Positions 6,808 through 28,360 of a stretch of DNA of 64,000 nucleotides are shown one piece after another (position 1 is the stretch's first letter; each line of letters begins with the position of its first letter). The stretch spans positions 12,596-76,595 of the forward strand of contig CALRFF010000002.1 of NCBI GenBank assembly GCA_943356495.1. Reading direction: 5' to 3'. The position numbers and the translations under genes were made by a program. Under the pieces are notes generated by a model that was not told the DNA's origin, searched no databases, and saw nothing but the letters and a program-made list of their open reading frames with translations. Source of the stretch: Candidatus Nomurabacteria bacterium. GTDB lineage: Bacteria > Patescibacteriota > Minisyncoccia > Phycocordibacterales > SBAW01.

Positions 6808-7553
6808 GCGGAAATAATTTCAACAAAGGAAGTAACATCGGCACTCGCGTGGCCTACAAGCAGGCCCGCGATGTCGCCCTCGGCGATAAGTGCGGCGGCG
6901 TTTGCAGGCTCCACCGAGCCGCCGTAGAGCACCGGCACCTTAAGCGCCGATTTACGGTCAAGCACGTCGGCCAATGTTTTGCGTATAAAAATCGCCATCT
7001 CGCGGACCTCGGCGGACGTTAGCGCGGAGTCTGCGTGCTTGCCTATCGCCCACACCGGTTCGTAGGCAACTACGAGCTTGCCGGCGAGCGACTGTGCGCC
7101 GGAGAGAGCTGACCGTATTTGTTCGGCGATAAAAGAAAAATGCCCTCCGTCTTCGGTGCGCTCCAACTCGCCGACACACAAGACCGGCACCAGCCCTGCC
7201 GATGCGGCAGCCACCAACTGGCCGTGCACCGCGACATTGTCCTCGCCTAGGGCGCGGCGCTCGGAGTGCCCGACAAGGGCAAACGTGCCTCCTGCGGTTT
7301 TAACCATGGCGCCGGACACCCCGCCGGTCTGCGCGCCGGAGAGCCCCGAAACTGTTTGAGCGCCCACACGCACCGCAGAACTTTCTAACATTGCCGACAC
7401 AACCGGAATAAAAGGTGCGGGAACGGCAAGTGCTACTTCGACACCGCTTATGCCGCGCACTTTACGCTTAAGCACACGGGCAAAGTCCTTGGCGGACTCG
7501 GCGCTCTCTATATACATCTTCCAGTTACCAATGACGAGACGTTTGCGGGTCAC
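6795..7553 (-). CDS. tpiA: Triosephosphate isomerase
   Basis: GNWKM, AYEPVWAIG, YGGSV motifs. Confidence 0.9.
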   Translation of the reverse strand: MTRKRLVIGNWKMYIESAESAKDFARVLKRKVRGISGVEVALAVPAPFIPVVSAMLESSAVRVGAQTVSGLSGAQTGGVSGAMVKTAGGTFALVGHSERRALGEDNVAVHGQLVAAASAGLVPVLCVGELERTEDGGHFSFIAEQIRSALSGAQSLAGKLVVAYEPVWAIGKHADSALTSAEVREMAIFIRKTLADVLDRKSALKVPVLYGGSVEPANAAALIAEGDIAGLLVGHASADVTSFVEIISACKK

Positions 7554-7568
7554 AGGGCAAATATACCA

Positions 7569-9050: not shown

Positions 9051-9181
9051 TATTATATAGTATGAAGTAGACTATAGAAGTCTGGAAACTGCCCTGAGGG
9101 GGCGGTTATTTTTTTACCGGATTTAAGGGAACACTTATGTCCCTTAACGGGATGAGAAAAATTAAATAACAAAATTAATAT

Positions 9182-10381
9182 ATGTTTGACCTTAAAGTAA
9201 TAAACTCGGTTTTGGGCGAGCTCGAGGAGGAGCGCGGCATACCGCGCGAGAAAGTAATCGAGGCTATCGAGGCCGCGCTTGCGACCGCGTACAAAAAAGA
9301 ATACGCAAAAAAAGGGCAGGTCATACGCGCGCAGATAGACCTTAACACCGGCACCACCGAATTTCAGCAGATAAAAACCGTAGTCGATGACACGACCGTG
9401 CGATTTATTACCGAAGAAGAGGAGGCAAACGAGGAGCCGCGGGAGCCCGAGCTAGATGCCGAGGGCAACCCTATCGCGCCCCTGCCCCGCTACAACGAAG
9501 AGCAGCATATAAAAATAGAAGACGCCAAGTTTATTAAACGTGACGCCAAAGTAGGCGACGACCTTGTCTTCCCGCTCGAGGCTAAGGGCGACTACGGCCG
9601 CATTGCCGCGCAAACCGCCAAGCAGGTAATCATCCAGAAAATTCGCGAGGCGGAAAAGGTCTCGGTCGTGGCCGAGTACGGTGCGCGCCAAGGCGAAATT
9701 GTGTCGGGTACCGTGCAGCGCATGGAGCGCGGCAACATTTATGTCGACTTGGGCCGCGCTACCGGCATACTCCCCTACGACGAGCAGATACCGGGCGAGC
9801 GTTACCGCCAAGGCGAGCGTATTCGCGCACTTTTGTACCAAGTAGAGGAGTCGCCCCGCGGTATCTACCTGCGCCTGTCGCGTGCCAAGGGCGAGTTTTT
9901 GGCGAAACTCTTCGAGATGGAGGCCCCCGAAGCCGCGCACGGCACAGTTGTCTTTAAGTCTATTGCGCGCGAGGCGGGCAGCCGCTCTAAAGTAGCCGTC
10001 GCCTCGACCGACCCGCATGTCGACCCGGTCGGCTCGTTGGTCGGCCAGCGCGGTGTCCGCGTATCGACCGTCACGTCCGAACTCGGCGGCGAAAAGATAG
10101 ACATCATCGAGTGGAACGAGGACCCGAAAGCATTTATCCAAGAAGCCCTTTCTCCGGCGCGGATTCTTGAGGTAAGCCTCGATGAAGAGGAGCACAAAGC
10201 GACCATTAAAGTCGCCGAGGACCAGCAGAGTCTCGCCATCGGCCGCGGCGGTCAGAACGTGCGCTTGGCGGCCAAGCTTACCGGCTGGCGCATCGACATC
10301 CAGTCGCAGGGCGGCAAGGTGGTAGAGGGGGTAGAAGGCAAAGACCTCCCCGCTCCCGAAGCTATCCCCCCGATTGAGTAA
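9182..10381 (+). CDS. nusA: Transcription termination/antitermination factor NusA
   Basis: N-terminal domain, S1 and two KH domains recognisable; 399 aa. Confidence 0.9.
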   Translation: MFDLKVINSVLGELEEERGIPREKVIEAIEAALATAYKKEYAKKGQVIRAQIDLNTGTTEFQQIKTVVDDTTVRFITEEEEANEEPREPELDAEGNPIAPLPRYNEEQHIKIEDAKFIKRDAKVGDDLVFPLEAKGDYGRIAAQTAKQVIIQKIREAEKVSVVAEYGARQGEIVSGTVQRMERGNIYVDLGRATGILPYDEQIPGERYRQGERIRALLYQVEESPRGIYLRLSRAKGEFLAKLFEMEAPEAAHGTVVFKSIAREAGSRSKVAVASTDPHVDPVGSLVGQRGVRVSTVTSELGGEKIDIIEWNEDPKAFIQEALSPARILEVSLDEEEHKATIKVAEDQQSLAIGRGGQNVRLAAKLTGWRIDIQSQGGKVVEGVEGKDLPAPEAIPPIE

Positions 10382-16240: not shown

Positions 16241-16342
16241 CCCCTTTTGGCCCTGTGGACTACTCCAAATGGCTCTATTGCAAGGTTTTTTGAGGGGGGT
16301 ATACTACCCCCACAGGGTTTGGTAGAGGTTTTCCATTATCGT

Positions 16343-16400
16343 CTAGCGAAGCGAGAGAACAAAAGCTTGCTTTTGATTCCGAGCGAGCGACGACGATATG
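16343..16400 (+). repeat. Copy A of a three-member structured intergenic element family (GA-rich flanks plus variable perfect hairpin), directly upstream of hup
   Basis: CTAGCGAAGCGAG..CAAAAGC tt GCTTTTG..CCGAGCGAGCGACGACGATATG; aligns with copies at 20404-20472 and 25003-25060. Confidence 0.6.
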
Positions 16401-16431
16401 AATTATTATTCATATCAATTAACTATCCATC

Positions 16432-16704
16432 ATGAATAAGCAGGATATTGCAGAGAAGGTGCACGGCGTACTTGGTACCACCAAGGCAGACGCCGAACGC
16501 GCCGTCGAAGCCATGATAGAAGGCATTGTCGGAGAGCTCAAAAAGGGCGGCGAAGTCTCCGTGGCCGGTCTTGGCATCTTCAAGACCAAAATGCGCGCCG
16601 CACGCCAAGCGCGCAACCCGCGCACCGGCGCGACCGTACAGGTCCCCTCGATGCGTGTGCCGAAGTTCCAACCGGCAAAAGCGCTTAAAGAAGCGGTAAA
16701 GTAG
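16432..16704 (+). CDS. hup: DNA-binding protein HU
   Basis: 90 aa, GFGKF-like arm (GLGIFKTKMRAARQARNPRTG), classic HU/IHF fold sequence. Confidence 0.9.
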   Translation: MNKQDIAEKVHGVLGTTKADAERAVEAMIEGIVGELKKGGEVSVAGLGIFKTKMRAARQARNPRTGATVQVPSMRVPKFQPAKALKEAVK

Positions 16705-16724
16705 CCAGACAGGATCCTCTCAAA

Positions 16725-16760
16725 ACAAAAAACCCCGACCAAAGTCGGGGTTTTTTGTTG
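16725..16760. terminator. Bidirectional rho-independent terminator between hup and the convergent DUF3298-like gene
   Basis: AAAAAACCCCGAC caaag TCGGGGTTTTTT, U-runs on both strands. Confidence 0.85.
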
Positions 16761-16761
16761 C

Positions 16762-17517
16762 TTACTGGATATCCTTAAGTTGTATCCGCACTTCAAAGCT
16801 CCCCACCGCATAGGCGGCTACTTGGTAGGGCGGCAAGGCCAGCACCAGCGTGTCGCCGTCTATAACAAAGGTAGAAAAGTTTTCTACCTTAGGGGCAAGG
16901 CCTTCGGCAAAGATTGAGCCGCTTACATCGTCTACTCCGGTGCGGGCCTTCATTTGAGCGGTTACGTCGTTAGAGACAAGCAGTGATAGTTCCTCGAGCC
17001 CGTTGGGGTTTGTGGCAAGTATGTCGGTAATGCCTAGCTGTTTACCCTGCTTATCAAACACAAAACTCATAAAGTACGCGTTCGGGTGCGCGCCGAGCGT
17101 ATCCTCATAAATCGCATATAAGTACGACACCGTGTCCGCGCCCGCATAGGCCTTGTACTCCATACCCAAAGCATATTTACGGTCGACGCCCAAGCCCTGG
17201 ATCTTTATATCCTCGGCAGTAAGTGCGGCAAAGTTGCCGTTTTCTTTAAACTCGGCGATGCGCTCTGCTATAGCGCTCTCAATAGTCATACGGACCTTTG
17301 CGTCCGCTGCCGGCGATAACTCAGTCGAAAAAGGGTACAGCGCTTCTATCGTATAGTAGGCTTCGTTTTCGTGATACACCATACTCCCCTCGCCTAGCTG
17401 CTCCCCTTGCAGCACCGGCGTATACACAACACTTTGCGGCGCCTTAACTAAACTTAGGCCCCACACTACCCCCGCGGCTACTATCACAAGCCCTACAATT
17501 GCGAGAAATTTATTCAT
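16762..17517 (-). CDS. Membrane-anchored DUF4163/DUF3298 (RsiV-like) domain protein
   Basis: N-terminal TM then ~230 aa beta-rich domain resembling the DUF4163+DUF3298 pair; start at MNKFLAIV. Confidence 0.5.
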   Translation of the reverse strand: MNKFLAIVGLVIVAAGVVWGLSLVKAPQSVVYTPVLQGEQLGEGSMVYHENEAYYTIEALYPFSTELSPAADAKVRMTIESAIAERIAEFKENGNFAALTAEDIKIQGLGVDRKYALGMEYKAYAGADTVSYLYAIYEDTLGAHPNAYFMSFVFDKQGKQLGITDILATNPNGLEELSLLVSNDVTAQMKARTGVDDVSGSIFAEGLAPKVENFSTFVIDGDTLVLALPPYQVAAYAVGSFEVRIQLKDIQ

Positions 17518-17542
17518 ATATTCGGAGTATATCAATCTTTTG

Positions 17543-17613
17543 TGCGGGATGGGAGAATCGAACTCCCAACTACAGTTTGGAAAACTGTCGTTTTACCACT
17601 AAACTAATCCCGC
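17543..17613 (-). tRNA. tRNA-Gly (anticodon UCC)
   Basis: Cloverleaf: GCGGGAT acceptor, anticodon loop TTTCCAA, T-arm GGGAGTTCGATTCTCCC; CCA not encoded. Confidence 0.85.
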
Positions 17614-17636
17614 TTTTCGGTATACTGAGAGTATAT

Positions 17637-18779
17637 ATGGAAGTTATATATGCGCTACTGCATCAGGCGCTCGCCGTGGTTATAGGCGTGCTTGTTGCAC
17701 TTGGATCATTTTTTACCGGACACACAGAGACGGCACATGCACCCCTCCCCGTCCCTGCCGCAACAACTACAGCAACAGCCTCTTTTCCGGTTGCCTCGAG
17801 CGCACCAAAAACTATCGCGACCAGTACTCCAGCAAAAAATCCTCCTCAAAAGTCCTCGGATCTCCTGTCCGAGCCGAAAGCTGCCGGCTCGGCAGGCCAG
17901 ACTTTTGCTCCAGATTCTTTGCCTACGTTTTCAACGGAGCAATTAAATACATTGGCGCGCGGGGCGTTGGTTAATATTTTGTGCACTACCCTTTCAGGCG
18001 GCTCGTTTAACCCCATATCGGGCTCGGGCGTCGTAGTAGACAGCCGCGGCGTCATACTTACCAATGCGCATGTTGCGCAATACTTTTTATTGCGCGACTA
18101 CCCTACCACCAACAGCATCGATTGCGTCGTGCGTACCGGCAGCCCCGCCCAGCCGCGCTATCGCGCAGAGCTGTTGTACCTGCCGCCCACGTGGGTAGTG
18201 GCAAACGCCGCGCAGATAAAAAAAGACACGCCGACAGGCACGGGCGAGTTTGACTACGCTTTTTTGCGCATTACAGGCAGCACCAACCCGCAAGGCACTA
18301 TTCCCTCTTCGTTTGCAGCCTTGCCGATGGAGTCGGGCGACCCATACGTACAGCAACGGATATTGTTGGCGGCGTATCCCGCCGGATTTTTAGGCGGCAT
18401 TGCCATAAGTCTTAATCTCTACCCTACCTCGGCGCTTGCCACCGTGGGCGACGTATACACCTTTGGCGGCGAGACGAACATCGACCTCTTTTCGCTCGGT
18501 GGCACGGTAGTCGCACAAACCGGCTCTTCCGGAGGCGCAGCCGTCTCCGCCCAAGGCAAACTTATAGGACTTATAGCCACCGAGGTGCCGGGGGCTACTA
18601 CCGCCGAGCGCGACCTGCGCGCTATTACTATGGCCCACATAGACCGCAGCTTACGTGCCGCCGGACAAGGAGGCATACTCACGCTACTTTCTCGCGATGT
18701 CGTACAGTTTGCCGCCGAGTTTAACGCCGCCACCGCCCCGATAGAAACAAGACTTCTTCTCGACGCGCTTACGAAGTAG
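17637..18779 (+). CDS. Secreted trypsin-like (S1 family) serine protease
   Basis: TM/signal, Pro/Thr-rich linker, catalytic His (LTNAHVA), GSSGGAAV serine motif; ORF start inside tRNA rejected, start at MEVIYALL. Confidence 0.7.
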   Translation: MEVIYALLHQALAVVIGVLVALGSFFTGHTETAHAPLPVPAATTTATASFPVASSAPKTIATSTPAKNPPQKSSDLLSEPKAAGSAGQTFAPDSLPTFSTEQLNTLARGALVNILCTTLSGGSFNPISGSGVVVDSRGVILTNAHVAQYFLLRDYPTTNSIDCVVRTGSPAQPRYRAELLYLPPTWVVANAAQIKKDTPTGTGEFDYAFLRITGSTNPQGTIPSSFAALPMESGDPYVQQRILLAAYPAGFLGGIAISLNLYPTSALATVGDVYTFGGETNIDLFSLGGTVVAQTGSSGGAAVSAQGKLIGLIATEVPGATTAERDLRAITMAHIDRSLRAAGQGGILTLLSRDVVQFAAEFNAATAPIETRLLLDALTK

Positions 18780-19647
18780 CGCTCCACCGGGCAAAAATGC
18801 CGCAAGGCAAGGCGCGGCCCGCAGTATCGGCAATGGCAAGGTCGCCGTACTCTATTTCGCCGCCGAATTTTTTTACAAACTGCTCGAGGTTGTATGCAAA
18901 CGCCAGCGATGAGTAGCCGGCTGCGTATCCGTTGATTAAAAAGAATGCAGGTGTGTCGCTCAAAAGCTCACCGCACAACTTAACAAGCTCGACAAAATCT
19001 TCTTCTATCTTCCACAACTCTTTTTTTGGGCCGTGGCCGAACGCCGGCGGGTCCATAATTATCCCGTCGTACTTTGCCCCCCTTTTTATTTCGCGTTTTA
19101 CAAATTGCAGCGCGTCCTCGACAATCCAACGGACAGGTTTGTCCTCCAAACCGGAGAGTGCGGCATTTTCGCGCGCCCACGCGACCGCAGTTTTACTTGC
19201 GTCGACATGCGTTACCGATGCGCCCGCTTGCGCCGCGGCAAGCGTCGCCCCGCCAGTGTACCCAAAAAGATTTAAAACAGTGTTTGGTTTTTGCGCGGCA
19301 ACCCACTCCCAGTTAGACAGTTGTTCAGGGAAAAGTCCTGTGTGTTTAAAGCTAGTAGGCTTAATTAAAAACTGCAGACCGCCAAGAGTTATCTGCCAGC
19401 TCTTCGGTAACTCTTTTTCAATCCACTTCCCCTGCCTACCGGCAGGCAGGCTTCCCTGCCCTTTTGTTCTTTCGTAGCGGCCTTGGGCTTTGGCCCACTC
19501 GGCTTCGCCCAACTGCTTTTGCCACAAAGCCTGCGGGTCGGGGCGCGCCAATAGTACATCGCCAAAACGTTCAAGCTTCTCTTCCCCACCGGAGTCGAGC
19601 AGCTCGTAGTCTTTGCTTGGGTTGGTGGTGAGGGTTATCTGTTTCAT
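18769..19647 (-). CDS. Class I SAM-dependent rRNA methyltransferase, RlmI/RlmK-like
   Basis: VLNLFGYTGGATLAAA SAM-binding motif and IIMDPPAFG; 292 aa; contains GC palindrome copy 2 in frame. Confidence 0.7.
   Translation of the reverse strand: MKQITLTTNPSKDYELLDSGGEEKLERFGDVLLARPDPQALWQKQLGEAEWAKAQGRYERTKGQGSLPAGRQGKWIEKELPKSWQITLGGLQFLIKPTSFKHTGLFPEQLSNWEWVAAQKPNTVLNLFGYTGGATLAAAQAGASVTHVDASKTAVAWARENAALSGLEDKPVRWIVEDALQFVKREIKRGAKYDGIIMDPPAFGHGPKKELWKIEEDFVELVKLCGELLSDTPAFFLINGYAAGYSSLAFAYNLEQFVKKFGGEIEYGDLAIADTAGRALPCGIFARWSATS
19430..19450. repeat. GC palindrome copy 2, embedded in frame in the methyltransferase CDS (encodes LPAGRQG)
   Basis: CCCTGCCTACCGGCAGGCAGG. Confidence 0.6.
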
Positions 19648-19655
19648 GTGAAATA

Positions 19656-19729
19656 TGGTCGGGGCGCCCAGAATCGAACTGGGTCATTCTGCTCCCAAAG
19701 CAGACGTACTACCGGTATACGACGCCCCG
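19656..19729 (-). tRNA. tRNA-Pro (anticodon UGG)
   Basis: Acceptor CGGGGCG/CGCCCCG, anticodon loop TTTGGGA, T-arm GGTTCGATTCTGG; CCA encoded. Confidence 0.85.
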
Positions 19730-19748
19730 AATGTCTTTTATGTGTCCT

Positions 19749-20144
19749 TTAGAGTATTACGTTCTCTATAACCTCTACTTTAGCCCGCCGAGTCGAAAAA
19801 TCCAAGTAAACACAAGCTAAATCGATCTGCCACGGCCGCCGCTCGGGTACATGGTGGTCCAATAGATAGGTTTGCACTGCCCTATGGAGCCTTTTGAGCT
19901 TAGCAGGATGCATATTTTCCTCCGGCCTTATCCGCAAACTGGCAGATGTTTCGCGTGAAACCGACTTTACCTCGACAAAACTAAGCAAATCCCCTTTTTC
20001 TGCAACGATATCTATCTCTCCCCAAGGCTTGAGGTAATTACGCTCAAGTACCCGAAATCCCCTTTTTTCGAGCCATTTACAGGCGACATCCTCCCCTATA
20101 TCGCCTATTTTCCTCTTTATTGTCCTTTTGGAGTCAGTTTTCAC
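19749..20144 (-). CDS. YraN/UPF0102-family endonuclease
   Basis: 131 aa, IGDIGEDVACKWLEKRGFRVLERNY..GEIDIVAEKGD..VFVEVK matches YraN family. Confidence 0.8.
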   Translation of the reverse strand: MKTDSKRTIKRKIGDIGEDVACKWLEKRGFRVLERNYLKPWGEIDIVAEKGDLLSFVEVKSVSRETSASLRIRPEENMHPAKLKRLHRAVQTYLLDHHVPERRPWQIDLACVYLDFSTRRAKVEVIENVIL

Positions 20145-20332
20145 GGGAAACGTCTAAATATGTTACTAAGTAACAAAAACGGCTATTTTACCTGAAAAAG
20201 GCATGAAGGACAGGTTTTTAGTGTCTTTTAATGCACATGTCCCCAACCTTATCCACAGCTTTTGGGTTTTTTGTTGCCCCAAAAGGGGATTTTTGTCCCC
20301 ACCCTTGCTGTCTTTGAGAAACTGTTACTGCT

Positions 20333-20406
20333 TGGTGCGGTCAGGGAGAATCGAACTCCCGCCTGCTCCTTGGCAAGGAGCCGTCCTACCACTAAACTAT
20401 GACCGC
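20333..20406 (-). tRNA. tRNA-Gly (anticodon GCC)
   Basis: GCGGTCA acceptor, anticodon loop TTGCCAA, T-arm GGGAGTTCGATTCTCCC, CCA encoded. Confidence 0.85.
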
Positions 20407-20472
20407 GAGTGAGGTATCGAGTACAAGCTTGCTTGTACTTCGACCGAGCGAGCGGGGCATATCGAAGATATG
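20404..20472 (+). repeat. Copy B of the structured intergenic element family, forming the spacer between tRNA-Gly(GCC) and tRNA-Arg
   Basis: GCGAGTGAGG..CGAGTACAAGC tt GCTTGTACTTCG..CCGAGCGAGCGGGGCATATCGAAGATATG. Confidence 0.55.
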
Positions 20473-20514
20473 ACCGCTTGCGATGAAGACTATATCATAA
20501 AATCTGACCTCTTG

Positions 20515-20586
20515 TGCCTCCGGAGGGACTCGAACCCCCAACAACTGCTTCGAAGGCAGCGATGATATCCATTTCACCACAGAGGC
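20515..20586 (-). tRNA. tRNA-Arg (anticodon UCG)
   Basis: GCCTCTG acceptor, anticodon loop CTTCGAA, T-arm GGGGGTTCGAGTCCCTC; CCA not encoded. Confidence 0.8.
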
Positions 20587-20606
20587 CTGCCTGCCGGCAG
20601 GCAGGC
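20585..20606. repeat. GC palindrome copy 3 (GCCTGCCTGCCGGCAGGCAGGC), abutting 5' end of tRNA-Arg and 17 nt upstream of cca
   Basis: Perfect 22-nt palindrome sharing the 13-mer CCGGCAGGCAGGC with copies at 30-50 and 19430-19450. Confidence 0.7.
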
Positions 20607-20622
20607 GTGCTAGAATCATGCC

Positions 20623-22095
20623 ATGCAACTGCGCCCCAGCCAAATACCCGCCGAGGTACTGCGGGTGGTGGAGGGCCTAACAAAAGGGGGGTTTGAGGCA
20701 TGGGTAGTAGGGGGGTGCGTACGCGACCTTTTACTTGGCCGCCGACCTAACGACTGGGATATCACGACCAACGCCAACCCCGAGCAGATACAAGCCTTGT
20801 TCGAAAACACCTTTTATACCAACGAATTTGGCACCGTCGGTGTAGTAAACGACGCTGTTGTGGACGAAACGCTAAAGGTGGTGGAAGTTACTCCCTATAG
20901 GCTAGAGGGGAGGTATAGCGACGCCCGACGCCCGGACAGTGTCATTTTTAGCCAAAAAATAGAGGACGATCTTAAGCGTCGCGACTTTACTATCAATGCG
21001 CTTGCTTACGATCCCACTAAAGGACAGTTAATCGACCTGTATGACGGTATAAAAGACATCTCTGCGGGCCTTATACGGGCCGTAGGCGAGCCAAAATTAC
21101 GTTTTGACGAGGATGCACTGCGCATACTGCGCGCCGTGCGTATCGCCGCCCAGTTGAGTTTTACGATAGAGCTAAAAACAGAGGAGGCAATGGGGGAGAC
21201 CGCCGCCCAGCTAGGAAAGATCTCTAAAGAGCGCGTCCGCGACGAATTTGTACGTATTATCAACTCGCAAAAGCCTATGGATGCCCTTATTTTGAGCCAT
21301 AAACTGGGCATTTTGCAGTACATACTGCCGGAGCTCGAGGAGGGGATAGATGTCGAGCAAAATCAGGCCCATAAATACGATGTATACGAGCACAACTTAC
21401 GCGCACTCCAACATGCAGCCGATAAGGAGTGGGGTTTCGACGTCCGGCTAGCCGCACTACTGCACGACATAGGAAAACCCAAAAGCCGGCGCTGGTCGGA
21501 CGACAAAAAGGACTGGACCTTCCACGGCCACGACGTCGTAGGGGCAAAAATGGCCAAAAAGATTCTTACGGACCTTAAATTTTCACGTGAAACGATAGAA
21601 AAAACGGTAAAGATGGTGCGTTGGCACATGTTCTTTAGCGATCCGGAGAAGGTAACGCTCTCGGCGGTGCGCCGTATTATCGTTAATGTTGGCAAAGAAA
21701 ACATAGATCAGCTTATCGAGCTGCGTATCTGCGACCGTATAGGCACCGGCCGGCCTAAAGCACAGCCGTTCCGCCTACGTAAATACCAAGCGATGATAGA
21801 CGAGGCTTTGCGGGACCCTATATCGGTCGCCATGCTCAAAATAGACGGTCACCGGTTGATAGAGATGGGGGAGAAGCCCGGCCCACGGCTGGGTTGGACG
21901 CTCCACGCATTGTTGGAGGAGGTGCTCGAAGACCCTACAAAAAATACTGCCGAATATTTGGAAGGGAGGGCAGACGAGCTGCTTGAGCTGACTGACGCTG
22001 AGCTCAAAACGCTCGGCGTAGAAGGTAAGGAAAAGAAAGAGGAGCTAGAGGAAGCGGAGATAAAAGACATTCACAAGAAGCATTTCGTAGACTAA
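20623..22095 (+). CDS. cca: CCA-adding tRNA nucleotidyltransferase with HD domain
   Basis: GGCVRDLLLG..DWDI head motif, HD domain LLHDIGKP; 490 aa. Confidence 0.85.
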   Translation: MQLRPSQIPAEVLRVVEGLTKGGFEAWVVGGCVRDLLLGRRPNDWDITTNANPEQIQALFENTFYTNEFGTVGVVNDAVVDETLKVVEVTPYRLEGRYSDARRPDSVIFSQKIEDDLKRRDFTINALAYDPTKGQLIDLYDGIKDISAGLIRAVGEPKLRFDEDALRILRAVRIAAQLSFTIELKTEEAMGETAAQLGKISKERVRDEFVRIINSQKPMDALILSHKLGILQYILPELEEGIDVEQNQAHKYDVYEHNLRALQHAADKEWGFDVRLAALLHDIGKPKSRRWSDDKKDWTFHGHDVVGAKMAKKILTDLKFSRETIEKTVKMVRWHMFFSDPEKVTLSAVRRIIVNVGKENIDQLIELRICDRIGTGRPKAQPFRLRKYQAMIDEALRDPISVAMLKIDGHRLIEMGEKPGPRLGWTLHALLEEVLEDPTKNTAEYLEGRADELLELTDAELKTLGVEGKEKKEELEEAEIKDIHKKHFVD

Positions 22096-22380
22096 CAAGA
22101 GTATAAAAGACACTTGTCCACAGGTATGTCCTTTACAGTGTCCTTTATAACCGTATTATTACTCTTAGATAAAAAGTTTAGCTAATTCCTTTAACCCTGT
22201 AGGAGTTGGTATTAAACATCAGTTCATTCGTTCACGACATGTCAGGGTCGTTTCTTAATCTCATTGTCAACGTCGAGCAGTGTGGTATTCCCTCACTCTT
22301 CGAAAAAATTGTGGAATTTACCACACGTTAGTTCTTCGCAGAACCGCAAGGTTCCCGGTTTAAGAAACACCGACCCCGTA

Positions 22381-22414
22381 GCCCGCCAACCTCTGTGGCG
22401 GGCTTTGTATTTCT
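22381..22414 (+). terminator. Plus-strand rho-independent terminator ending a ~290-nt AT-rich untranslated region after cca
   Basis: GCCCGCCAACCTCTGTGGCGGGC then TTTGTATTTCT; on the minus strand the hairpin is not followed by a U-run. Confidence 0.6.
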
Positions 22415-22415
22415 A

Positions 22416-23219
22416 CTACTTAAGCTCTATAACCACCGGGCAGTGGTCGGAGCCGTAGACCTCGGGCAGGATGTACGCCTTTTTTAAACGGGGGAGGAGT
22501 TTTTTAGAGACGAACCAGTAGTCGATGCGCCAGCCGACGTTGCGTGCCCGCGCATTGGCCCAGTGCGTCCACCACGTATAGTGACCGTTACCTTTAGGTA
22601 CAAAGTGACGGAACGAGTCTGCAAAGCCGGCTTTTATTATATTGTCGATGCCCTCGCGCTCCTCATCGGTAAAGCCGTGCTCGCCGACGTTGGGCTTGGG
22701 GTTGGCTAGGTCATCCTCGGTGTGCGCAACGTTGAGGTCGCCGCTAAAGAGGACCGGCTTTTGTTTATCAAGACGCTTCATGTACTCGAGAAACGCCGGA
22801 TCCCATTGCTTGTGTCGCAGACTAAGCCGCGAGAGATCGTCTTTGCTGTTGGGTGTATAGGAAGTAACGACAAAAAAGTCTTCGAGCTCGACGGTAACCA
22901 CACGTCCCTCGCGGTTGGGGTCGCCATAACTGTCGTCGTGCAATTTATATTTTTTGCACAGATCCTCCGGCAGACCGTGCATCTCATCTATTACTTCGAT
23001 GTCCTTTTTTACAAAAATGGCCGTGCCGCTGTAGCCTTTTTTCTCAGCACTGTTCCAATATTCCTCATACTCTTTTAAATCAACTTCCGCTTGCCCCCGC
23101 TCGGCCTTGGTTTCCTGCAAACAAACAACATCGGGCTTATACGCCTTCATAAAAGCTTGGAAATCACCCTTCTTAACGACCGCGCGTATGCCGTTGACGT
23201 TCCATGACGCAAGCTTCAT
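22416..23219 (-). CDS. xth: Exodeoxyribonuclease III
   Basis: WNVNGIRA, LQETK, GSDHCPV endonuclease/exonuclease/phosphatase motifs. Confidence 0.9.
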   Translation of the reverse strand: MKLASWNVNGIRAVVKKGDFQAFMKAYKPDVVCLQETKAERGQAEVDLKEYEEYWNSAEKKGYSGTAIFVKKDIEVIDEMHGLPEDLCKKYKLHDDSYGDPNREGRVVTVELEDFFVVTSYTPNSKDDLSRLSLRHKQWDPAFLEYMKRLDKQKPVLFSGDLNVAHTEDDLANPKPNVGEHGFTDEEREGIDNIIKAGFADSFRHFVPKGNGHYTWWTHWANARARNVGWRIDYWFVSKKLLPRLKKAYILPEVYGSDHCPVVIELK

Positions 23220-23326
23220 ATCGAGACAATACCATATTGTTCTTTCATAAAGTCTTCAGACAAGCTTGGCTATACATACGAGCGGACTGCACCTCTGTCG
23301 GAAGGGGAGAGAAAGTGAAAAGACTC

Positions 23327-23617
23327 ATGGCTGCCCAACCTGACTTGACGACCGCCCAAGCGCGTCTTGACGCTTTGCTGCCGGACCCGCGGGGCAAAAC
23401 CCTTATCGAGCTCATACAATGGGTTATTGCCAACGACTCGGACTATAAGGGCCTGGAGGAACGGGAAATCTTTGTCAAAGCCTGCGGCGACCCGAAGGAA
23501 GGCCTAGCCAAATACAAAGAGGCCTGCAAAACCGGTGACGACGTATGCGTACGCACTTTCTGCCTCGCACGTATGCACAAGCTAACAAAAGGCATACTTG
23601 CCCAACCCCTCGCCTGA
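23327..23617 (+). CDS. Hypothetical protein (~96 aa)
   Basis: ORF with typical codon usage; start uncertain (ORF extends upstream over xth start). Confidence 0.3.
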   Translation: MAAQPDLTTAQARLDALLPDPRGKTLIELIQWVIANDSDYKGLEEREIFVKACGDPKEGLAKYKEACKTGDDVCVRTFCLARMHKLTKGILAQPLA

Positions 23618-23639
23618 AATACGGCGGGGGATTTCTTTA

Positions 23640-24521
23640 TTATTTTCTTCGTTGACCGTGGAATTTTTTGTGTATCTCGCGCAAGTGTTTGTCGGTAACG
23701 TGCGTGTAGACCTGTGTAGTGGCGATGTTGGCGTGGCCGAGGAGCGCCTGCACACTGCGCAAGTCGGCGCCGTTTTCTAAAAGGTCAGTGGCAAAGCTGT
23801 GACGGATAACATGCGGAGTTACTTTGCGGGTAATACCGGCCGCGATAGCGTGTTTTTTGACTATGCGCTCAACCGAGCGCGGAGTAAGAGGAAAGAGCGC
23901 GTCACTGTCGAGGTCGGTACGCTTTTTTTCGTACGCTCTCAAAGCCTCCTTCGCACCACTACTTAAAAATACTACCCGTATTTTTTCGCCTTTGCCGCGC
24001 ACGCTAAACTCGTCGCGCGAAAGATCGAGGTCGCGGTTGAGCCGGCATAGCTCGCTTACGCGCAAACCGGTGCTAAACAGAAGCTCCATAATCGCCTTAT
24101 CGCGCAGTGCCGCGAGGCCCGTGCCCTTAACATTGATTAAACGGTTTAACTCGTCTGTCGAAATCAAATCCAAATCTCTCGCGCCCACTTTAGCCAACTC
24201 GATGCGCTCGGGATTTAAACTTTCAAAATCGCGCTTGCGCAAAAACTTTAAAAACGCGCGCAAACTGATCATGTAGTAGTTTTGCGTCTTATGCTTCATC
24301 GTGCCGGTCGTACCCGCCTGGCGATTAAGGTGTATGCGGAATTCGCGCACCATCGCCTCGGTAATTTTGGCAGGGGAGGACACCTTAGTGTGGGTAAGAA
24401 AGCGGGTGAGGTACCTATCATAATTCTCGACCGTCTTAATAGAACGGCCCTTCTCTATCTCCAGATACTCCAAAAACTGGTTCTTGAGCTCGTGTAGTTG
24501 GTTTGGTGCCATGCGTCGCAC
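23640..24521 (-). CDS. Tyrosine recombinase, XerC/XerD family
   Basis: N-terminal SAM-like core-binding domain; C-terminal catalytic R..HxxR..Y (HVIRHSFAT, LGHANIATTQVYTH). Confidence 0.8.
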   Translation of the reverse strand: MRRMAPNQLHELKNQFLEYLEIEKGRSIKTVENYDRYLTRFLTHTKVSSPAKITEAMVREFRIHLNRQAGTTGTMKHKTQNYYMISLRAFLKFLRKRDFESLNPERIELAKVGARDLDLISTDELNRLINVKGTGLAALRDKAIMELLFSTGLRVSELCRLNRDLDLSRDEFSVRGKGEKIRVVFLSSGAKEALRAYEKKRTDLDSDALFPLTPRSVERIVKKHAIAAGITRKVTPHVIRHSFATDLLENGADLRSVQALLGHANIATTQVYTHVTDKHLREIHKKFHGQRRK

Positions 24522-24579
24522 AATATTTTAGCACTCTTTTTGCCATATTCTATATATATGGTGTTTTGCGGGGCACCCC

Positions 24580-24608
24580 TTGCGGAAAAGTCGTGCGCGT
24601 GATAGAGT
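24580..24608 (+). promoter_or_regulatory. rpsO promoter TTGCGG-N17-TAGAGT, hexamer 6 nt before ATG; upstream GGGGCACCCC hairpin may be an S15 autoregulatory leader
   Basis: Spacing and hexamers read directly; leader function inferred. Confidence 0.4.
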
Positions 24609-24614
24609 GCTGAC

Positions 24615-24881
24615 ATGCTGACCAAGCAGAAAAAGGCTAAAACTATAAAGGAATCCGCTGTTCATGATAAGGACACCGGCTCTCCCGAGGTGCAAATCGC
24701 CCTTTTGTCGAAGGGAATTGAAGAGCTTACCTCGCATTTGAAAAAGCACTTGAAGGACAAGCACAGCCGCCGCGGTCTCCTCCAGATGGTGGCCGATCGC
24801 CGCACCCATTTGAAGTATTTGGAAGGTAAAGACAAAAAGCGCTACAACGCTATTGTGAAGAAGCTCAGTTTGAAGAAGTAA
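24615..24881 (+). CDS. rpsO: 30S ribosomal protein S15
   Basis: GSPEVQIALLS..HSRRGLLQMV..RYNAIVKKL. Confidence 0.9.
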   Translation: MLTKQKKAKTIKESAVHDKDTGSPEVQIALLSKGIEELTSHLKKHLKDKHSRRGLLQMVADRRTHLKYLEGKDKKRYNAIVKKLSLKK

Positions 24882-25002
24882 ACTTTTTTGGGCGTTTGTG
24901 TAAGAGCTTCACTACTTCTTCGTATATACTAAGGTAAGGTCTATTTTGTATTGGTTGGCGCGTTCTTTTTATTTTGTTCGTAATTGTTTTAATTTTTATG
25001 GC

Positions 25003-25060
25003 CTAGCGAAGCAGGCAAACGAAAGTTTACTTTCGATTTGCTGCGAGCGACGGACATATT
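25003..25060 (+). repeat. Copy C of the structured intergenic element family, directly upstream of the NYN-domain gene
   Basis: CTAGCGAAGCAGG..GCAAACGAAAGT tt ACTTTCGATTTGC..TGCGAGCGACGGACATATT. Confidence 0.6.
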
Positions 25061-25066
25061 CCTAAT

Positions 25067-25735
25067 ATGGCTATCATTAAGCATAAAAGCCAGCGTGTCG
25101 GCATTTTTATAGACACGCAAAACCTGTATCACTCGGCGAAGAATCTTTACAAAAGCAAAGTTAACTTTGGCGCAGTAGTTAAAGAAGCAGTGGCGGGGCG
25201 CAATCTTATCCGCGCCATCGCCTATGTTATCCGCACCGAAAGCGAGGAGGAAAAGGGTTTTTTTGAGGCCCTGAACAAGCTGGGTATCGAAACCAAAGTC
25301 AAAGACATCCGTATCTTCGCCGGCGGCGCCAAAAAGGCCGACTGGGACATCGGCATGGCTATCGACGCCGTGGCGATGGGCCAAAAGCTCGACACAGTAA
25401 TCTTGGCAACCGGCGACGGCGACTTTGTACCTTTGGTTGAGTATCTTAAGTACACCTACGGTGTACAAGTTGAGGTTATAGCCTTCGGCAAATCGTCCTC
25501 GGGCCAGTTGCGCGAGGCGGCCGACGACTATATCGACATATGCGAAGACCCGCGTGCCTTCCTTATAGGCTTTCGCGGCGGGGTAGGGCGCTACCTCGGG
25601 CTTGGCGGCAAGTCCGGCAATGGTGGCGGCAAAGAGGGCCGCATAGACGCCGACACCAGTATCGAAACCACCGAAGCGCCCGAGGAGTGGAACGGCCAAG
25701 GGGAGGACCCCGCTATCCGCATGTCGGGTGAATAA
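25067..25735 (+). CDS. NYN-domain (LabA-like/DUF88) protein with Gly-rich C-terminal tail
   Basis: VGIFIDTQNLYHS.., AIAYV.., LATGDGDFVPLV NYN/PIN-like motifs. Confidence 0.7.
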   Translation: MAIIKHKSQRVGIFIDTQNLYHSAKNLYKSKVNFGAVVKEAVAGRNLIRAIAYVIRTESEEEKGFFEALNKLGIETKVKDIRIFAGGAKKADWDIGMAIDAVAMGQKLDTVILATGDGDFVPLVEYLKYTYGVQVEVIAFGKSSSGQLREAADDYIDICEDPRAFLIGFRGGVGRYLGLGGKSGNGGGKEGRIDADTSIETTEAPEEWNGQGEDPAIRMSGE

Positions 25736-25753
25736 CTAAAACATTTAATTTTT

Positions 25754-25792
25754 GAAAAGCCCTGATGCTCCTTGCGAGCATAGGGCTTTTTC
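25754..25792 (+). terminator. Rho-independent terminator
   Basis: AAGCCCTGATGCTC cttgc GAGCATAGGGCTT then TTTTCG. Confidence 0.7.
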
Positions 25793-25830
25793 GTTACTGT
25801 AGCGGCAGAAGGAAACTACAGGGGAGAGTC

Positions 25831-26202
25831 ATGAACGACCAAACAATGAAACTGTGCCCGCAGGGTGTTTGCGTGTGCGGCGCCAGTTCGACAAACAACT
25901 ACCAGCACGACCCGGACTGCCGCTCCAATGCGCCGTGGCCGATTGAGCACACAGCCCATTACTGGAACTACGGTGCCCAAGATGCACTGAGCGGCAAGCT
26001 ACACCAACTCGTGGGTATGCTTAAGCTTACCCAGCCGAGCGTTCAGCAGAAAGTCGCTTATATGCAGGGGTGGTTCTGCACTCGGCGCAAGCTGCATCGC
26101 GGGTCGGAGCGCACTCTGCAGTCGCTCGACCAAGCCATCGACCTTGCCAAAGGCCGACAGCAGCGCGACCACGTCACGCTCGATCCCAGCCCCGCCACAT
26201 AG
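25831..26202 (+). CDS. Cys-rich hypothetical protein (123 aa), monocistronic
   Basis: GGGGAGAG Shine-Dalgarno 3 nt before ATG (unlike most neighbours); flanked by terminators on both sides. Confidence 0.45.
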   Translation: MNDQTMKLCPQGVCVCGASSTNNYQHDPDCRSNAPWPIEHTAHYWNYGAQDALSGKLHQLVGMLKLTQPSVQQKVAYMQGWFCTRRKLHRGSERTLQSLDQAIDLAKGRQQRDHVTLDPSPAT

Positions 26203-26220
26203 GCGGGGCTTTTTCTTTTT
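26189..26220 (+). terminator. Rho-independent terminator (stop codon lies in loop)
   Basis: GCCCCGCC acatag GCGGGGC then TTTTTCTTTTT. Confidence 0.85.
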
Positions 26221-26245
26221 ACGTGCTTTCTGTTACAGTTTCACG

Positions 26246-28360
26246 ATGAAAACTAAAAGTTATTCGCTTGAGGTGGGCGGCAAGCAGATGGTCGCCGAGT
26301 TTACCGACCTGGCCGAACAGGCTAATGGCTCGGTAATACTCCGCTACGGCGACACGGCTGTACTCGCCACTGCGGTTATGAGCGGCCGCACACGCGACGA
26401 CATCGATTATTTTCCCCTCACCGTCGATTACGAGGAGCGCTTCTACGCCGCAGGTACCATAGGCGGCAGCCGTTTTATGCGCCGCGAGGGCCGGCCGTCT
26501 GACGCCGCAATACTCAGCGGCCGCATCGTTGACCGTACTATCCGCCCGCTCTTCCCTCAACATATCCGCAACGAAGTACAAGTAGTCATTACTATGTTGG
26601 CGCTGGGGGACGAAAAACCCGCGACGATCGCGGTCAACGCTGCGTCTATTGCGCTCGCGGTGTCTGACATACCGTGGAATGGACCCGTTGCGGCAGTGCA
26701 CTTGGTCGAAAAAAACTTCGACCTTGTTGCCTGCGGCAAAGACGGCACTATTAATATGATCGAGGTCGGCGCGCAGCAGGTTGACGAGGCAACCATTGCA
26801 AACGGTTTTGCCAAGTCGGTAGAGGAGCACAACAAAATCTTGGCGTGGCAAAAACAAATTATCGCCGAGCTGGGCAAACCTAAGCGCGATGCGACCAAAC
26901 CCGAGTTGCCGGCCGAGGTTGCGCAACTGTTTGAGGCCGAATTTGCCGCCAAGGTAACGCCCGCGGTCTTTTGCGGCATTGCCGGCAAAGACGAAATCCA
27001 TCACCTGACCGACGCGTGGATGGCCCGCGCTAAAGAGATAGAGACGCTTAAAGACATTAAATCCGGCGTACTCAAACGTTTTATCGAAGACAAAGTAGAC
27101 GAAGAGATCCATCGCGGCGCAATAGAGGACAACAAGCGCGCCGACAACCGCCCGTTCGACCAGCTGCGCCCGCTGTTTGCCAAAGCCGGCGGCGTTTCGC
27201 CGGTACTGCACGGCTCGGGGATCTTTTACCGCGGCGGTACGCACGTGTTTACCGCGCTTACCCTCGGCGGCCCCGGCGACAGCCAAGTCATCGATACGAT
27301 GGAGGAGCACGACGGTAAAAAACGCTTTATGCATCACTACAACTTCCCGCCGTACTCGGCGGGGGAAACCGGCCGCATGGGCGGTGTTAACCGCCGCGCC
27401 ACCGGCCACGGTGCCCTTGCCGAAAAAGCTTTGGCCGCGGTTATACCCGATGCAGTCGACTTCCCCTACACCATACGCTTGGTCTCCGAGTGTTTGGCGA
27501 GCAACGGCTCGACCTCGATGGGCTCGGCTTGTGCATCGACGCTCGCGCTCATGGACGGCGGCGTACCGATAAAAGCGCCGGTTGCGGGTATTGCGATGGG
27601 TGTCATGACCCACAACGGCAAACACAAAGTGATGACCGATATCCAAGGCCCCGAAGACGAATTTGGCGGCATGGACTTTAAGGTGGCGGGTACGCGCAAC
27701 GGGGTTACCGCGATACAGCTCGACATCAAACTCGACGGCATCCCGCTCGAGGTACTGACCGAGGCTCTGCAGGGCGCAAAAGTTGCCCGCGCGCAGATAC
27801 TCGACGTGATAGAGAAGGAAATTGGTGCACCGCGCGCAACCATTAGCCCACGCGCGCCCGAAATTTTGACTATGCGCGTCAAACCCGACCAGATCGGTAT
27901 GGTTATCGGTGGTGGTGGCAAAACAATCAACGGTATTAAAGATGTATGCCAGGTAGATGATATTACGATAGAAGACGACGGCTCGATATTTATCACCGGC
28001 AAAAACGGTAGCGCCCAAAAAGCCAAAGTCATGATCGAGGCTATTGTTAAAGAGTACAAAGCGGGCGAGGTCTACGACGGCGAAGTTACCCGCATGATGG
28101 ACTTTGGCGCGTTTATGCGCGTCGGGGTGGGCAAAGATGCCGAGGGGCTGGTGCATGTTTCTGAAGTGGCGCCGTTTCGTATCGACAAAATAGGCACGGC
28201 GCTTAAAGTGGGGGACAAAGTCCGCGTTATGATAAAGGAGATAGACGACAAAGGACGCATCAACCTGTCTATCAAAGCCGTAGACCCCGAGTGGGCAACA
28301 AAAAAAGGCCTTACCCCAAGCACCAATGCCGGACCAACCAGCAGACCCCCTAGATCCTAA
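26246..28360 (+). CDS. pnp: Polyribonucleotide nucleotidyltransferase (PNPase)
   Basis: Two RNase PH domains, KH (MVIGGGGKTINGI) and S1 domains; start at MKTKSYSL with TACAGT 6 nt upstream. Confidence 0.9.
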   Translation: MKTKSYSLEVGGKQMVAEFTDLAEQANGSVILRYGDTAVLATAVMSGRTRDDIDYFPLTVDYEERFYAAGTIGGSRFMRREGRPSDAAILSGRIVDRTIRPLFPQHIRNEVQVVITMLALGDEKPATIAVNAASIALAVSDIPWNGPVAAVHLVEKNFDLVACGKDGTINMIEVGAQQVDEATIANGFAKSVEEHNKILAWQKQIIAELGKPKRDATKPELPAEVAQLFEAEFAAKVTPAVFCGIAGKDEIHHLTDAWMARAKEIETLKDIKSGVLKRFIEDKVDEEIHRGAIEDNKRADNRPFDQLRPLFAKAGGVSPVLHGSGIFYRGGTHVFTALTLGGPGDSQVIDTMEEHDGKKRFMHHYNFPPYSAGETGRMGGVNRRATGHGALAEKALAAVIPDAVDFPYTIRLVSECLASNGSTSMGSACASTLALMDGGVPIKAPVAGIAMGVMTHNGKHKVMTDIQGPEDEFGGMDFKVAGTRNGVTAIQLDIKLDGIPLEVLTEALQGAKVARAQILDVIEKEIGAPRATISPRAPEILTMRVKPDQIGMVIGGGGKTINGIKDVCQVDDITIEDDGSIFITGKNGSAQKAKVMIEAIVKEYKAGEVYDGEVTRMMDFGAFMRVGVGKDAEGLVHVSEVAPFRIDKIGTALKVGDKVRVMIKEIDDKGRINLSIKAVDPEWATKKGLTPSTNAGPTSRPPRS

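Follow-up and report, generated by a model that had tools for sequence, protein, structure and literature searches.

The question raised by a 64,000-nt stretch of a Candidatus Nomurabacteria genome (assembly GCA_943356495.1, contig CALRFF010000002.1, positions 12,596 to 76,595 of the forward strand; hereafter the window) is whether three short structured sequences, found upstream of hup (copy 1), between two tRNA genes (copy 2) and upstream of a NYN-domain gene (copy 3), belong to the genes beside them or have been inserted there. An earlier note, made from the sequence alone, had described them as copies of a ~58-nt hairpin element and had taken the compensatory changes in the hairpin as selection on structure, either in an RNA leader or small RNA (sRNA) or in a DNA cruciform. 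The window is from a Patescibacteria genome of the Adlerbacteria/Paceibacterota type, with 54% G+C. Patescibacteria (the Candidate Phyla Radiation, CPR) have very small genomes, in which mobile DNA and known regulatory RNAs are thought to be scarce. In our reading the element is probably a small (about 60-100 nt), non-coding, non-autonomous and structure-dependent mobile repeat, specific to Patescibacteria and widespread among them. A structured repeat that is common to at least two CPR classes, is polymorphic within populations and lands precisely on promoters, start codons and tRNA ends would offer a handle on the genome dynamics of uncultivable organisms, and would serve as a marker of strain-level variation in metagenomes.

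Three related copies in the window

All three copies lie on the + strand at the places named in the earlier note. A covariance model of the whole family, run on the window with filters off, finds them with E=1e-27, 8e-22 and 3e-11; the next match of this model has E=0.08, and it detects no fourth copy in the window. A model built from copies 1 and 3 together with one foreign copy recovers the left-out copy 2 with E=0.13 in a search of 1.27 Mb.

Copies 1 and 3 align without gaps. The GA-rich box CTAGCGAAGC occurs once in each of them (at 16343 and 25003), as does the box GCGAGCGACG (at 16383 and 25043), and the spacing between the two boxes is exactly 40 nt each time. The hairpins of these two copies differ at two positions per arm, with both changes compensatory, and they are therefore homologous and not 'entirely different' in their arms, as had been claimed. 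Only copy 2 is clearly different. It is more divergent, with a longer stem and without CTAG, and its 5' side reads GCGAGTGAGG, so that the 5' box begins inside the 5' end of tRNA-Gly. The layout of GA-rich 5' box, hairpin and GA-rich 3' box is common to all three copies, but copy 2 is without the CTAGCGAAGC box. Each copy is also longer than ~58 nt, since an outer helix (P1) and a second hairpin on the 3' side (P4) belong to it (Table 1). The element does not end short of the NYN start codon, as had been supposed: this codon (ATG at 25067) is within the 3' arm of P4 of copy 3.

A family in two classes of Patescibacteria

Further copies with the conserved structure were found outside the window. 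In 80 loci with NYN orthologues from GTDB genomes (1.2 Mb in all) about 8 more copies occur sporadically, at unrelated places. A pattern scan of metagenomes with AAAGYTTRCTTTN{7,11}GCGAGCGACG gave 110 stretches, and these, together with the genome loci and the window, make up 99 distinct copies. Two subfamilies can be distinguished: subfamily I on Magasanikbacteria-like, AT-rich contigs, and subfamily II, which is the type found in the window, on Adlerbacteria-like contigs of about 50-58% G+C. On the one subfamily I contig that was checked (L124; the loci outside the window are referred to by such numbers) the best named relatives of SecA were from Candidatus Magasanikbacteria and Parcubacteria-group bacteria. 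Across the two classes the core sequence has changed extremely little.

No copy was found in the viral contigs searched, and a phage origin was rejected on this ground. An Rfam search had been suggested in the earlier note; with Rfam 15, only four tRNAs in the window reach the gathering threshold, and neither at this threshold nor at E-value thresholds is the element assigned to a family. The best sub-threshold matches of copy 1 are lactis-plasmid (RF01742; 20.4 bits against 70) and whalefall-1 (RF01762; 17.0 against 37), and the Rfam search of subfamily I and II loci returned nothing. A description of the element was not found in the searchable literature, including that on miniature inverted-repeat transposable elements (MITEs) of CPR bacteria and related RNA motifs.

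Subfamily I copies are also seen as tandem head-to-tail pairs (L134, about 4950-5100; L173, 5630-5800), where each unit has its own 3' hairpin, resembling an array of cassettes. A divergent copy of the hairpin element directly follows tRNA-Gly at L017 (4944-5008).

Orthologous sites without the element

The sites of all three copies were compared with those of relatives. Relatives have hup leaders without copy 1; the empty sites in L024 and L029 read ccattattcgtcaattaa, and the window has ccattatcgt, the insertion (core...gatatga) and then attattattcatatcaattaa. Copy 2 is absent from the tRNA-Gly/tRNA-Arg spacer in 26 of 26 relatives. The closest of these spacers (L016) has the same flanks, aactatgaccgc and GACTATATCATAA, and compared with it the window has 71 nt extra, including a perfect 9-nt duplication of TATGACCGC. 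At the start of the NYN gene most relatives run from ...tttttATGGC straight into the gene, and the window reads TATGGC, element, TATGGC. As the orthologous sites of relatives are empty, all three window copies are insertions. Empty sites were also found for the copies at L060 (inserted at the -10-like sequence TAGGGTATAAT), L076 and L033.

The flanks of L144 and L173 are 100% identical and the difference between these loci is exactly one 81-nt unit, which means that a unit was gained or lost within one population. Furthermore, the NYN start-codon site holds copies of different core lineages in the window and in L024, which indicates that it was used repeatedly.

These distributions bear on the idea that the element is a host DNA signal, i.e. 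a hairpin or cruciform bound by a protein in nucleoid organisation or in replication and priming, or else a portable promoter module. The extreme conservation of the core across classes agrees with such a role, and the core contains GCGAAGC and GCGAAAGC, motifs known to form very stable DNA mini-hairpins. TTGATT-like and TAT-rich hexamers can also be read from the sequence at sigma-70-like spacing. The element is, however, distributed sporadically, with most close relatives lacking it, and its presence is polymorphic within one population; we consider a host signal very improbable. The promoter module in particular (TTGATT, 16-17 nt, TATATG, recognised by eye) was dropped, as a simple consensus promoter scan finds no promoter-like site inside any window copy.

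Target copies at the junctions

Every copy has the arrangement D-core-D'-loop-D. The left D (also called X) is the native target sequence, D' (X'), which comes after the 3' box, is D in reverse complement, and the right D repeats the left one directly. The direct repeat covers 4-14 nt and always includes YAT; its commonest length is 9 nt, as in copy 2 and L060, and in L161 it has 14 nt. D' is able to pair with the left D, which gives P1, or with the right D, which gives P4. A YAT/TTAT motif is found at the left flank and at the right end, and the two hairpins, core and P4, are dissimilar.

In the model alignment X of copy 1 pairs with 16393-16398, and comparison with the empty sites identifies the 3' arm of its P4 as a second, decayed target copy (ATTATTCATATC). 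The first four bases of the right D of copy 2, TATG, end the 3' arm of P4 (GATATG, 20467-20472). In copy 3 the right target copy is TATGGC (25066-25071).

Six positions of P1 are more than 90% Watson-Crick paired in the 99 copies, with 3-5 pair types each. Cores of 46-51 nt that are 100% identical at different loci carry different X/X' which are still complementary. One such set has TATAAC/GTTATA (L135), TATTTG/TAAATA (L150) and TACAAC/GTTGCA (L166). Another consists of copy 3 with TATGGC/GACATA and the unrelated locus L184, where a core 100% identical to that of copy 3 is combined with CATCGC/GCGATA. This means that P1 is set at each insertion and not by slow compensatory evolution. The pairing of the outer helix, which makes up much of the apparent compensatory variation, is an insertion footprint at the DNA level and no evidence of selection on RNA, and the earlier argument from compensatory variation to selection on structure holds for the inner hairpin, which covaries between lineages, but not for the outer helix. 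In general, strong 'covariation' in a repeat family can be the footprint of insertion and need not reflect selection on RNA. The same observation disfavours guide-directed targeting, with X' as a heritable guide like those of IS200/IS605 or group II introns, since copies with identical cores should in that case share one X'.

A conventional MITE, moved by a DDE transposase with target duplications of ~9 bp, could have acquired its outer helix later, perfected by template switching in a quasi-palindrome. Insertion polymorphism would follow naturally from this, as would the 8-9-nt direct repeats in young-looking copies (copy 2, L060, L055, L097, L169). Yet terminal inverted repeats are absent at all boundaries defined by direct repeats, among them the ends of copy 2, L060 and L055, the repeat length varies between 4 and 14 nt, the element ends are not fixed relative to the core, and no parent insertion sequence (IS) with these ends was seen in ~2 Mb of loci. 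We judge a MITE of this kind unlikely.

Folding of the forward strand

The forward, purine-rich strand folds as a rod that starts with the outer helix P1 of 6-7 bp. The rod interior has two isolated G-C steps separated by G.A/A.G mismatches, with loops between in which GA faces AG (UAGCGAAGCGAG opposite CGAGCGAGCGAC); GCGA-type purine boxes face each other on this strand. The inner stem has 10-12 bp, usually one bulged A, and the tip AAAG(C/U)UU(G/A)CUUU. P4 is a second, smaller hairpin located 3' of the rod. RNAalifold predicts, unaided, the same structure as had been drawn.

For 37 subfamily II sequences, 92.6% of the cells are paired, compared with 81% in shuffles and 35-47% in slid controls, and eleven pairs have changes on both sides. 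The inner stem covaries between lineages (C-G to U-A, A-U to G-C), and the core hairpin itself is therefore under structural constraint. The forward strand is the better folding strand in 88 of the 99 copies, and U.G wobbles at both G-C steps occur on the forward strand only (4 and 14 cases). The counts of G.U and A.C in P1 (11 vs 13) have no strand bias, and the functional strand was instead inferred from G-C steps, loops and folding energies.

Neighbouring genes and transcription signals

Most family members run antisense to the genes beside them. Of the 32 subfamily I loci, 28 have the forward strand of the element on the C-rich strand, and the genes at its two sides are usually both encoded on the opposite strand. 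The neighbours are functionally unrelated (recR-, rarA-, HIT-, gap-, obg- and secA-like genes, and tRNAs). Copy 2 and the copies at L135 and L161 abut tRNA 5' ends. In one subfamily II lineage exactly 3 nt separate the start codon of the neighbour (CAT as read on the forward strand) from CTAGCG; judged from the flanks, the N-termini of these neighbours look like those of RecR, RarA, a HIT protein, GAPDH and Obg.

A cis-acting RNA leader, in which the rod and the mutually exclusive helices P1 and P4 regulate translation or processing, for instance by unmasking or masking a start codon or a tRNA 5' end, would fit several of these arrangements. Copies 1 and 3 are in sense orientation between a promoter-like site and a start codon, the NYN AUG is located in P4, the sub-lineage just mentioned has the start codon of many genes inside P1 at exactly 3 nt from the core, the structure covaries, and a D' that pairs with either D has the logic of a switch. 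Against this, the element is absent from the orthologous leaders of relatives, the target genes share no function, and P1 is re-set at each insertion next to an identical core. Copy 2 and most members are moreover antisense, where the purine loops become pyrimidine loops and folding is weaker. A cis-leader or riboswitch would be recognised by one gene family, sense orientation and conservation at orthologous loci, and this is not the pattern found. Such a leader has, in our estimate, a small chance of being the answer. The earlier proposal of a leader or sRNA tied to hup, the tRNAs and NYN is not supported, given the empty orthologous sites and the unrelated and mostly antisense neighbours.

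The orientation antisense to the neighbours and the better folding of the forward strand would also suit a multi-copy sRNA gene that has a promoter and terminator of its own on the forward strand and acts in trans or as antisense. In subfamily I a TTATA(A/T)TT box, 96-100% conserved, immediately precedes the core, a T-rich stretch comes after P4, and P4 of L085 scores as an intrinsic terminator on the forward strand. However, a -10 box at this place would start transcription inside the core and omit the strictly maintained 5' strand of P1, and no -35 signal accompanies the subfamily I box. Such a box is missing from the window subfamily, and the promoter scan gave no site in or beside the window copies; Rfam has no match, and secA-type KKYK codons, taken in reverse complement, give the T-rich tail of subfamily I. 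An independent sRNA gene is possible for subfamily I; as an explanation of the element it appears quite improbable.

Coding on the reverse strand, as a leader peptide or otherwise, was rejected as well, there being no start in frame with the conserved TAG and the variation being compensatory and not codon-like. An AGGA resembling a Shine-Dalgarno sequence on the reverse strand of subfamily I is not conserved (GGAA, GCAA, GAAA), because it varies with P1.

In subfamily I, as at L124, the 3' hairpin of the element overlaps the last codons of secA (7334-10093, - strand, in L124), which read KYKRCHGA*, or KYKRCCGA* ending in the TGA of the element. The secA-type 3' hairpin is also present on subfamily I copies without secA nearby (3' flanks of L089, L107, L178 and L183 compared). 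Judged by these flanks, the 3' hairpin and T-rich tail of subfamily I look like a relic of the 3' end of a secA-type gene (...KYKRCHGA* on the other strand), as though adjacent DNA had moved together with the element.

Proposed mechanism

A family of conserved structure, insertion polymorphism, the native origin of the target, a D' specific to each copy and the asymmetry of the strands were directly observed. A non-autonomous mobile repeat is the simplest account of family, structure, empty sites, signature and orientation. The conserved rod would be recognised as a folded single strand by an enzyme acting in trans, a view to which the DNA hairpin or cruciform recognised by a protein, given as an alternative in the earlier note, comes nearer than the RNA leader. 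Insertion would take place at AT-rich YAT sites, among them promoter -10 boxes, start-codon contexts and tRNA 5' ends. The target would be duplicated on insertion and D' then made or corrected at the DNA level, perhaps by hairpin-primed fold-back copying of the single-stranded target or, alternatively, by a template-switch 'palindrome correction' of a quasi-palindrome. Mobility would in this way pass through a single-stranded, structure-dependent step. Since the duplication restores the start codon, tRNA end or -10 box, insertions would be tolerated in compact genomes. The effects on hup, NYN and tRNA-Gly are probably incidental: the leader gains a stable hairpin, and the AUG or the tRNA 5' end comes to lie in a weak one.

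We rate the element as an interspersed structured repeat of a known general type, with an unusual and unexplained junction signature. The stronger proposal, that it stands for an undescribed class of tiny mobile elements whose insertion builds an inverted target copy beside a conserved GA-bracketed hairpin at every new site, is tentative and in our view doubtful. If true, it would mean an insertion chemistry outside the known transposon families (hairpin-primed fold-back copying or folded-single-strand recombination), and as a by-product the start codons, tRNA 5' ends and -10 boxes of streamlined CPR genomes would be surrounded by alternative helices. With its inverted copy of the target at the junction, the element points to a mode of insertion so far undescribed for repetitive extragenic palindromes (REPs), MITEs or IS200/IS605.

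Several observations weigh against a mobile repeat. No cognate transposase or recombinase was identified in ~2 Mb of DNA from the loci, where the only IS200-type TnpA has unrelated ends; the search was tblastn with IS200 and IS608 TnpA sequences and is weak for distant REP-associated tyrosine transposases (RAYTs). The lack of terminal inverted repeats together with direct repeats of 4-14 nt fits no textbook transposition mechanism. The core is nearly invariant across two classes, which could also reflect a host function, and the copy number looks low, with three copies in the 64-kb window and none in most relatives. The covariation of the inner stem, the purine-rich internal loops and the forward-strand wobbles are equally expected of a functional RNA, and the TTATAAT-like box and terminator-like 3' hairpin of subfamily I are what an sRNA gene would have.

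The TnpA gene mentioned above is an IS200/IS605-type Y1 transposase gene (L084, 3593-4060, + strand) with hairpin ends CCCCGCAC...GTGCGGGG (flanks 3530-3600 and 4060-4140). It was rejected as the cognate enzyme, its hairpin ends being unrelated and its distance to a copy 4.5 kb. The loop of its right-end hairpin has GGAGCGAAGCGGA, a sequence similar to the 5' box of the element; in all other respects the ends are unrelated. The only tyrosine recombinase encoded near the copies in the window is XerC/D-like (23640-24521), and relatives without the element have this gene too.

Positions and surroundings of the copies

The features of the three copies are collected in Table 1. With the promoter-like site TTGCAA-16-TATACT upstream and the hup ATG at 16432, copy 1 lies inside the 5' leader of hup. 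Copy 2 is placed between tRNA-Gly(GCC) and tRNA-Arg(TCG), both on the minus strand, and is therefore antisense to its tRNA transcription unit. Copy 3 lies between rpsO and the NYN-domain gene that precedes pnp. The GC skew of the window is too weak for an inference of the replication strand.

Table 1. Coordinates in the window of the parts of the three copies and of the hup promoter-like site
Feature	Position	Strand	Description
Copy 1, full extent	about 16334-16416	+	core, P1 and P4
Copy 1, left target D/X	16334..16342	+	CATTATCGT; native hup-leader sequence, 5' strand of outer helix P1
Copy 1, core	16343..16392	+	5' GA box CTAGCGAAGCGAGA, hairpin, 3' GA box CCGAGCGAGCGACG
Copy 1, hairpin	16357-16380	+	GAACAAAAGC-TT-GCTTTTGaTTC, A bulged
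Copy 1, tail	16393..16416	+	X' (ACGATA, complementary to X), then P4 GATATGAAT-tatt-ATTCATATC
hup promoter-like site	16278..16305	+	TTGCAA-16-TATACT; same box kept upstream of hup in relatives
Copy 2, full extent	about 20398-20477	+	core, P1 and P4
Copy 2, left target D	20398..20406	+	TATGACCGC; reverse complement of first 9 nt of tRNA-Gly(GCC)
Copy 2, insert	20407..20468	+	degenerate 5' box GAGTGAGG, hairpin, 3' box CCGAGCGAGCGGGG, X', P4 5' arm and loop
Copy 2, hairpin	20418-20442	+	CGAGTACAAGC-TT-GCTTGTACtTCG
Copy 2, X'	20452-20461	+	GCGGGGCATA; then P4 5' arm and loop CATATC-gaa
Copy 2, right target D	20469..20477	+	TATGACCGC; perfect 9-nt direct repeat of 20398-20406
Copy 3, full extent	about 24994-25071	+	core, P1 and P4
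Copy 3, left target D/X	24994..25002	+	TTTTATGGC; decoy copy of NYN start-codon context
Copy 3, core	25003..25052	+	CTAGCGAAGC, hairpin 25011-25044, GCGAGCGACG
Copy 3, tail	25053..25071	+	X' (GACATA), then P4 (CATATT-cct-AATATG)

Upstream of hup and of NYN alike (window 16278-16305 and about 24925-24932) there is a conserved TATACT box, at the same positions in relatives, and promoters of the clade appear to be of the form TTGCAA-16-TATACT. The conserved box means that NYN is served by a promoter of its own, located downstream of rpsO. Window 24615-28360, L001 and L002 have the conserved order rpsO, NYN-domain gene, small unknown open reading frame (ORF), pnp, and a LabA-like NYN gene within the classical rpsO-pnp pair may interest those working on RNA turnover in the clade.

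In many genomes other hairpin-like sequences, unrelated to the element, directly precede the NYN start codon within the 40-70 nt before it, namely in L010, L015 and L060 (CTAGTGGCTAGTGGCTAA type) and in L041, L053, L051, L050, L066, L068 and L069. Small insertions or rapidly evolving structures seem to have a hot spot here. The tRNA-Gly/tRNA-Arg spacer of L047, L069, L064, L033, L071 and L078 has a different conserved insert of ~110 nt, which reads GTGGTCACGa.taat...CGACCCCGnCTCGCGG...CATCGCTCCG... and may be a further repeat family or a gene for a structured RNA. In L069 the 3' end of tRNA-Gly is followed by repeated fragments resembling tRNA 3' ends (GTGACCGATTCCC..CCGCAC), as att-site remnants of integrative elements would be.

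Comparison with known systems

Tandem interspaced guide RNA (TIGR) arrays are the only literature match for hairpin repeats of Patescibacteria, and their architecture differs from that of the element. They consist of 5-15 tandem 36-nt units with two independent spacers, beside the gene of a Nop-domain Tas protein (PMC12045711). A TIGR array was rejected here, since the element occurs singly or at most in pairs, its two variable segments are mutually complementary, and no Tas gene is present.

The Rfam families lactis-plasmid and whalefall-1 resemble the element in having hairpins with GA-rich internal loops. Lactis-plasmid also has a second 3' hairpin, and its weak alignment spans the whole element; neither family has the element as a member. 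We know of no function for either family.

Integron attC sites and the attP(+) site of CTX phage, used by XerCD, have an arrangement like D-cargo-D'-loop-D, in which the D'/D hairpin recreates a duplex site; the likeness is one of logic only. Strand-specific folding, bulged bases and tandem 'cassette-like' units at one site (L173) are shared as well. In contrast to attC, the element has no RYYYAAC/GTTRRRY core sites in the alignments, no integron integrase, attI or ORF cargo, and its D is specific to each copy.

MITEs such as the Correia repeat enclosed elements (CREE) of Neisseria, the enterobacterial repetitive intergenic consensus (ERIC) and the Rickettsia palindromic elements are likewise small non-autonomous repeats beside or between genes, co-transcribed with them, with stable hairpins, target duplications and presence/absence polymorphism between strains. 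The element differs from CREE- and ERIC-type MITEs in having no terminal inverted repeats and direct repeats of varying length (4-14 nt, most often 9), with no parent IS seen in the ~2 Mb of loci, and its conserved part is the internal GA-bracketed rod and not the termini.

REPs and bacterial interspersed mosaic elements (BIMEs) with their RAYT (Y1/HUH), and the IS200/IS605-derived palindrome-associated transposable elements (PATEs), are short, non-coding and extragenic, with an imperfect hairpin that has a conserved irregularity and without terminal inverted repeats, all as in the element. Strand-asymmetric conservation, orientation bias, location at gene boundaries and the occurrence of tandem and single copies are further likenesses, and a short flanking motif (YAT in our case) recurs at the left flank and the right end. 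REPs are recognised by a conserved GTAG tetranucleotide 5' of a palindrome of 20-40 nt and by a RAYT gene with REPs on its flanks. Unlike REPs, the element has no GTAG-type tetranucleotide, its conserved 5' sequence being CTAGCGA, and no RAYT or TnpA is nearby. A PATE of the IS200/IS605 type would be inserted 3' of a fixed target of 4-5 nt, with subterminal hairpins at either end. IS200/IS605 makes no direct repeats, whereas those of the element reach 14 nt, each copy has its own inverted target D', and the copy number appears low. Taken together, these comparisons suggest that the element fails the testable defining features of each family, and that in genomic behaviour it would stand closest to the single-strand elements of the REP/PATE type and to MITEs.

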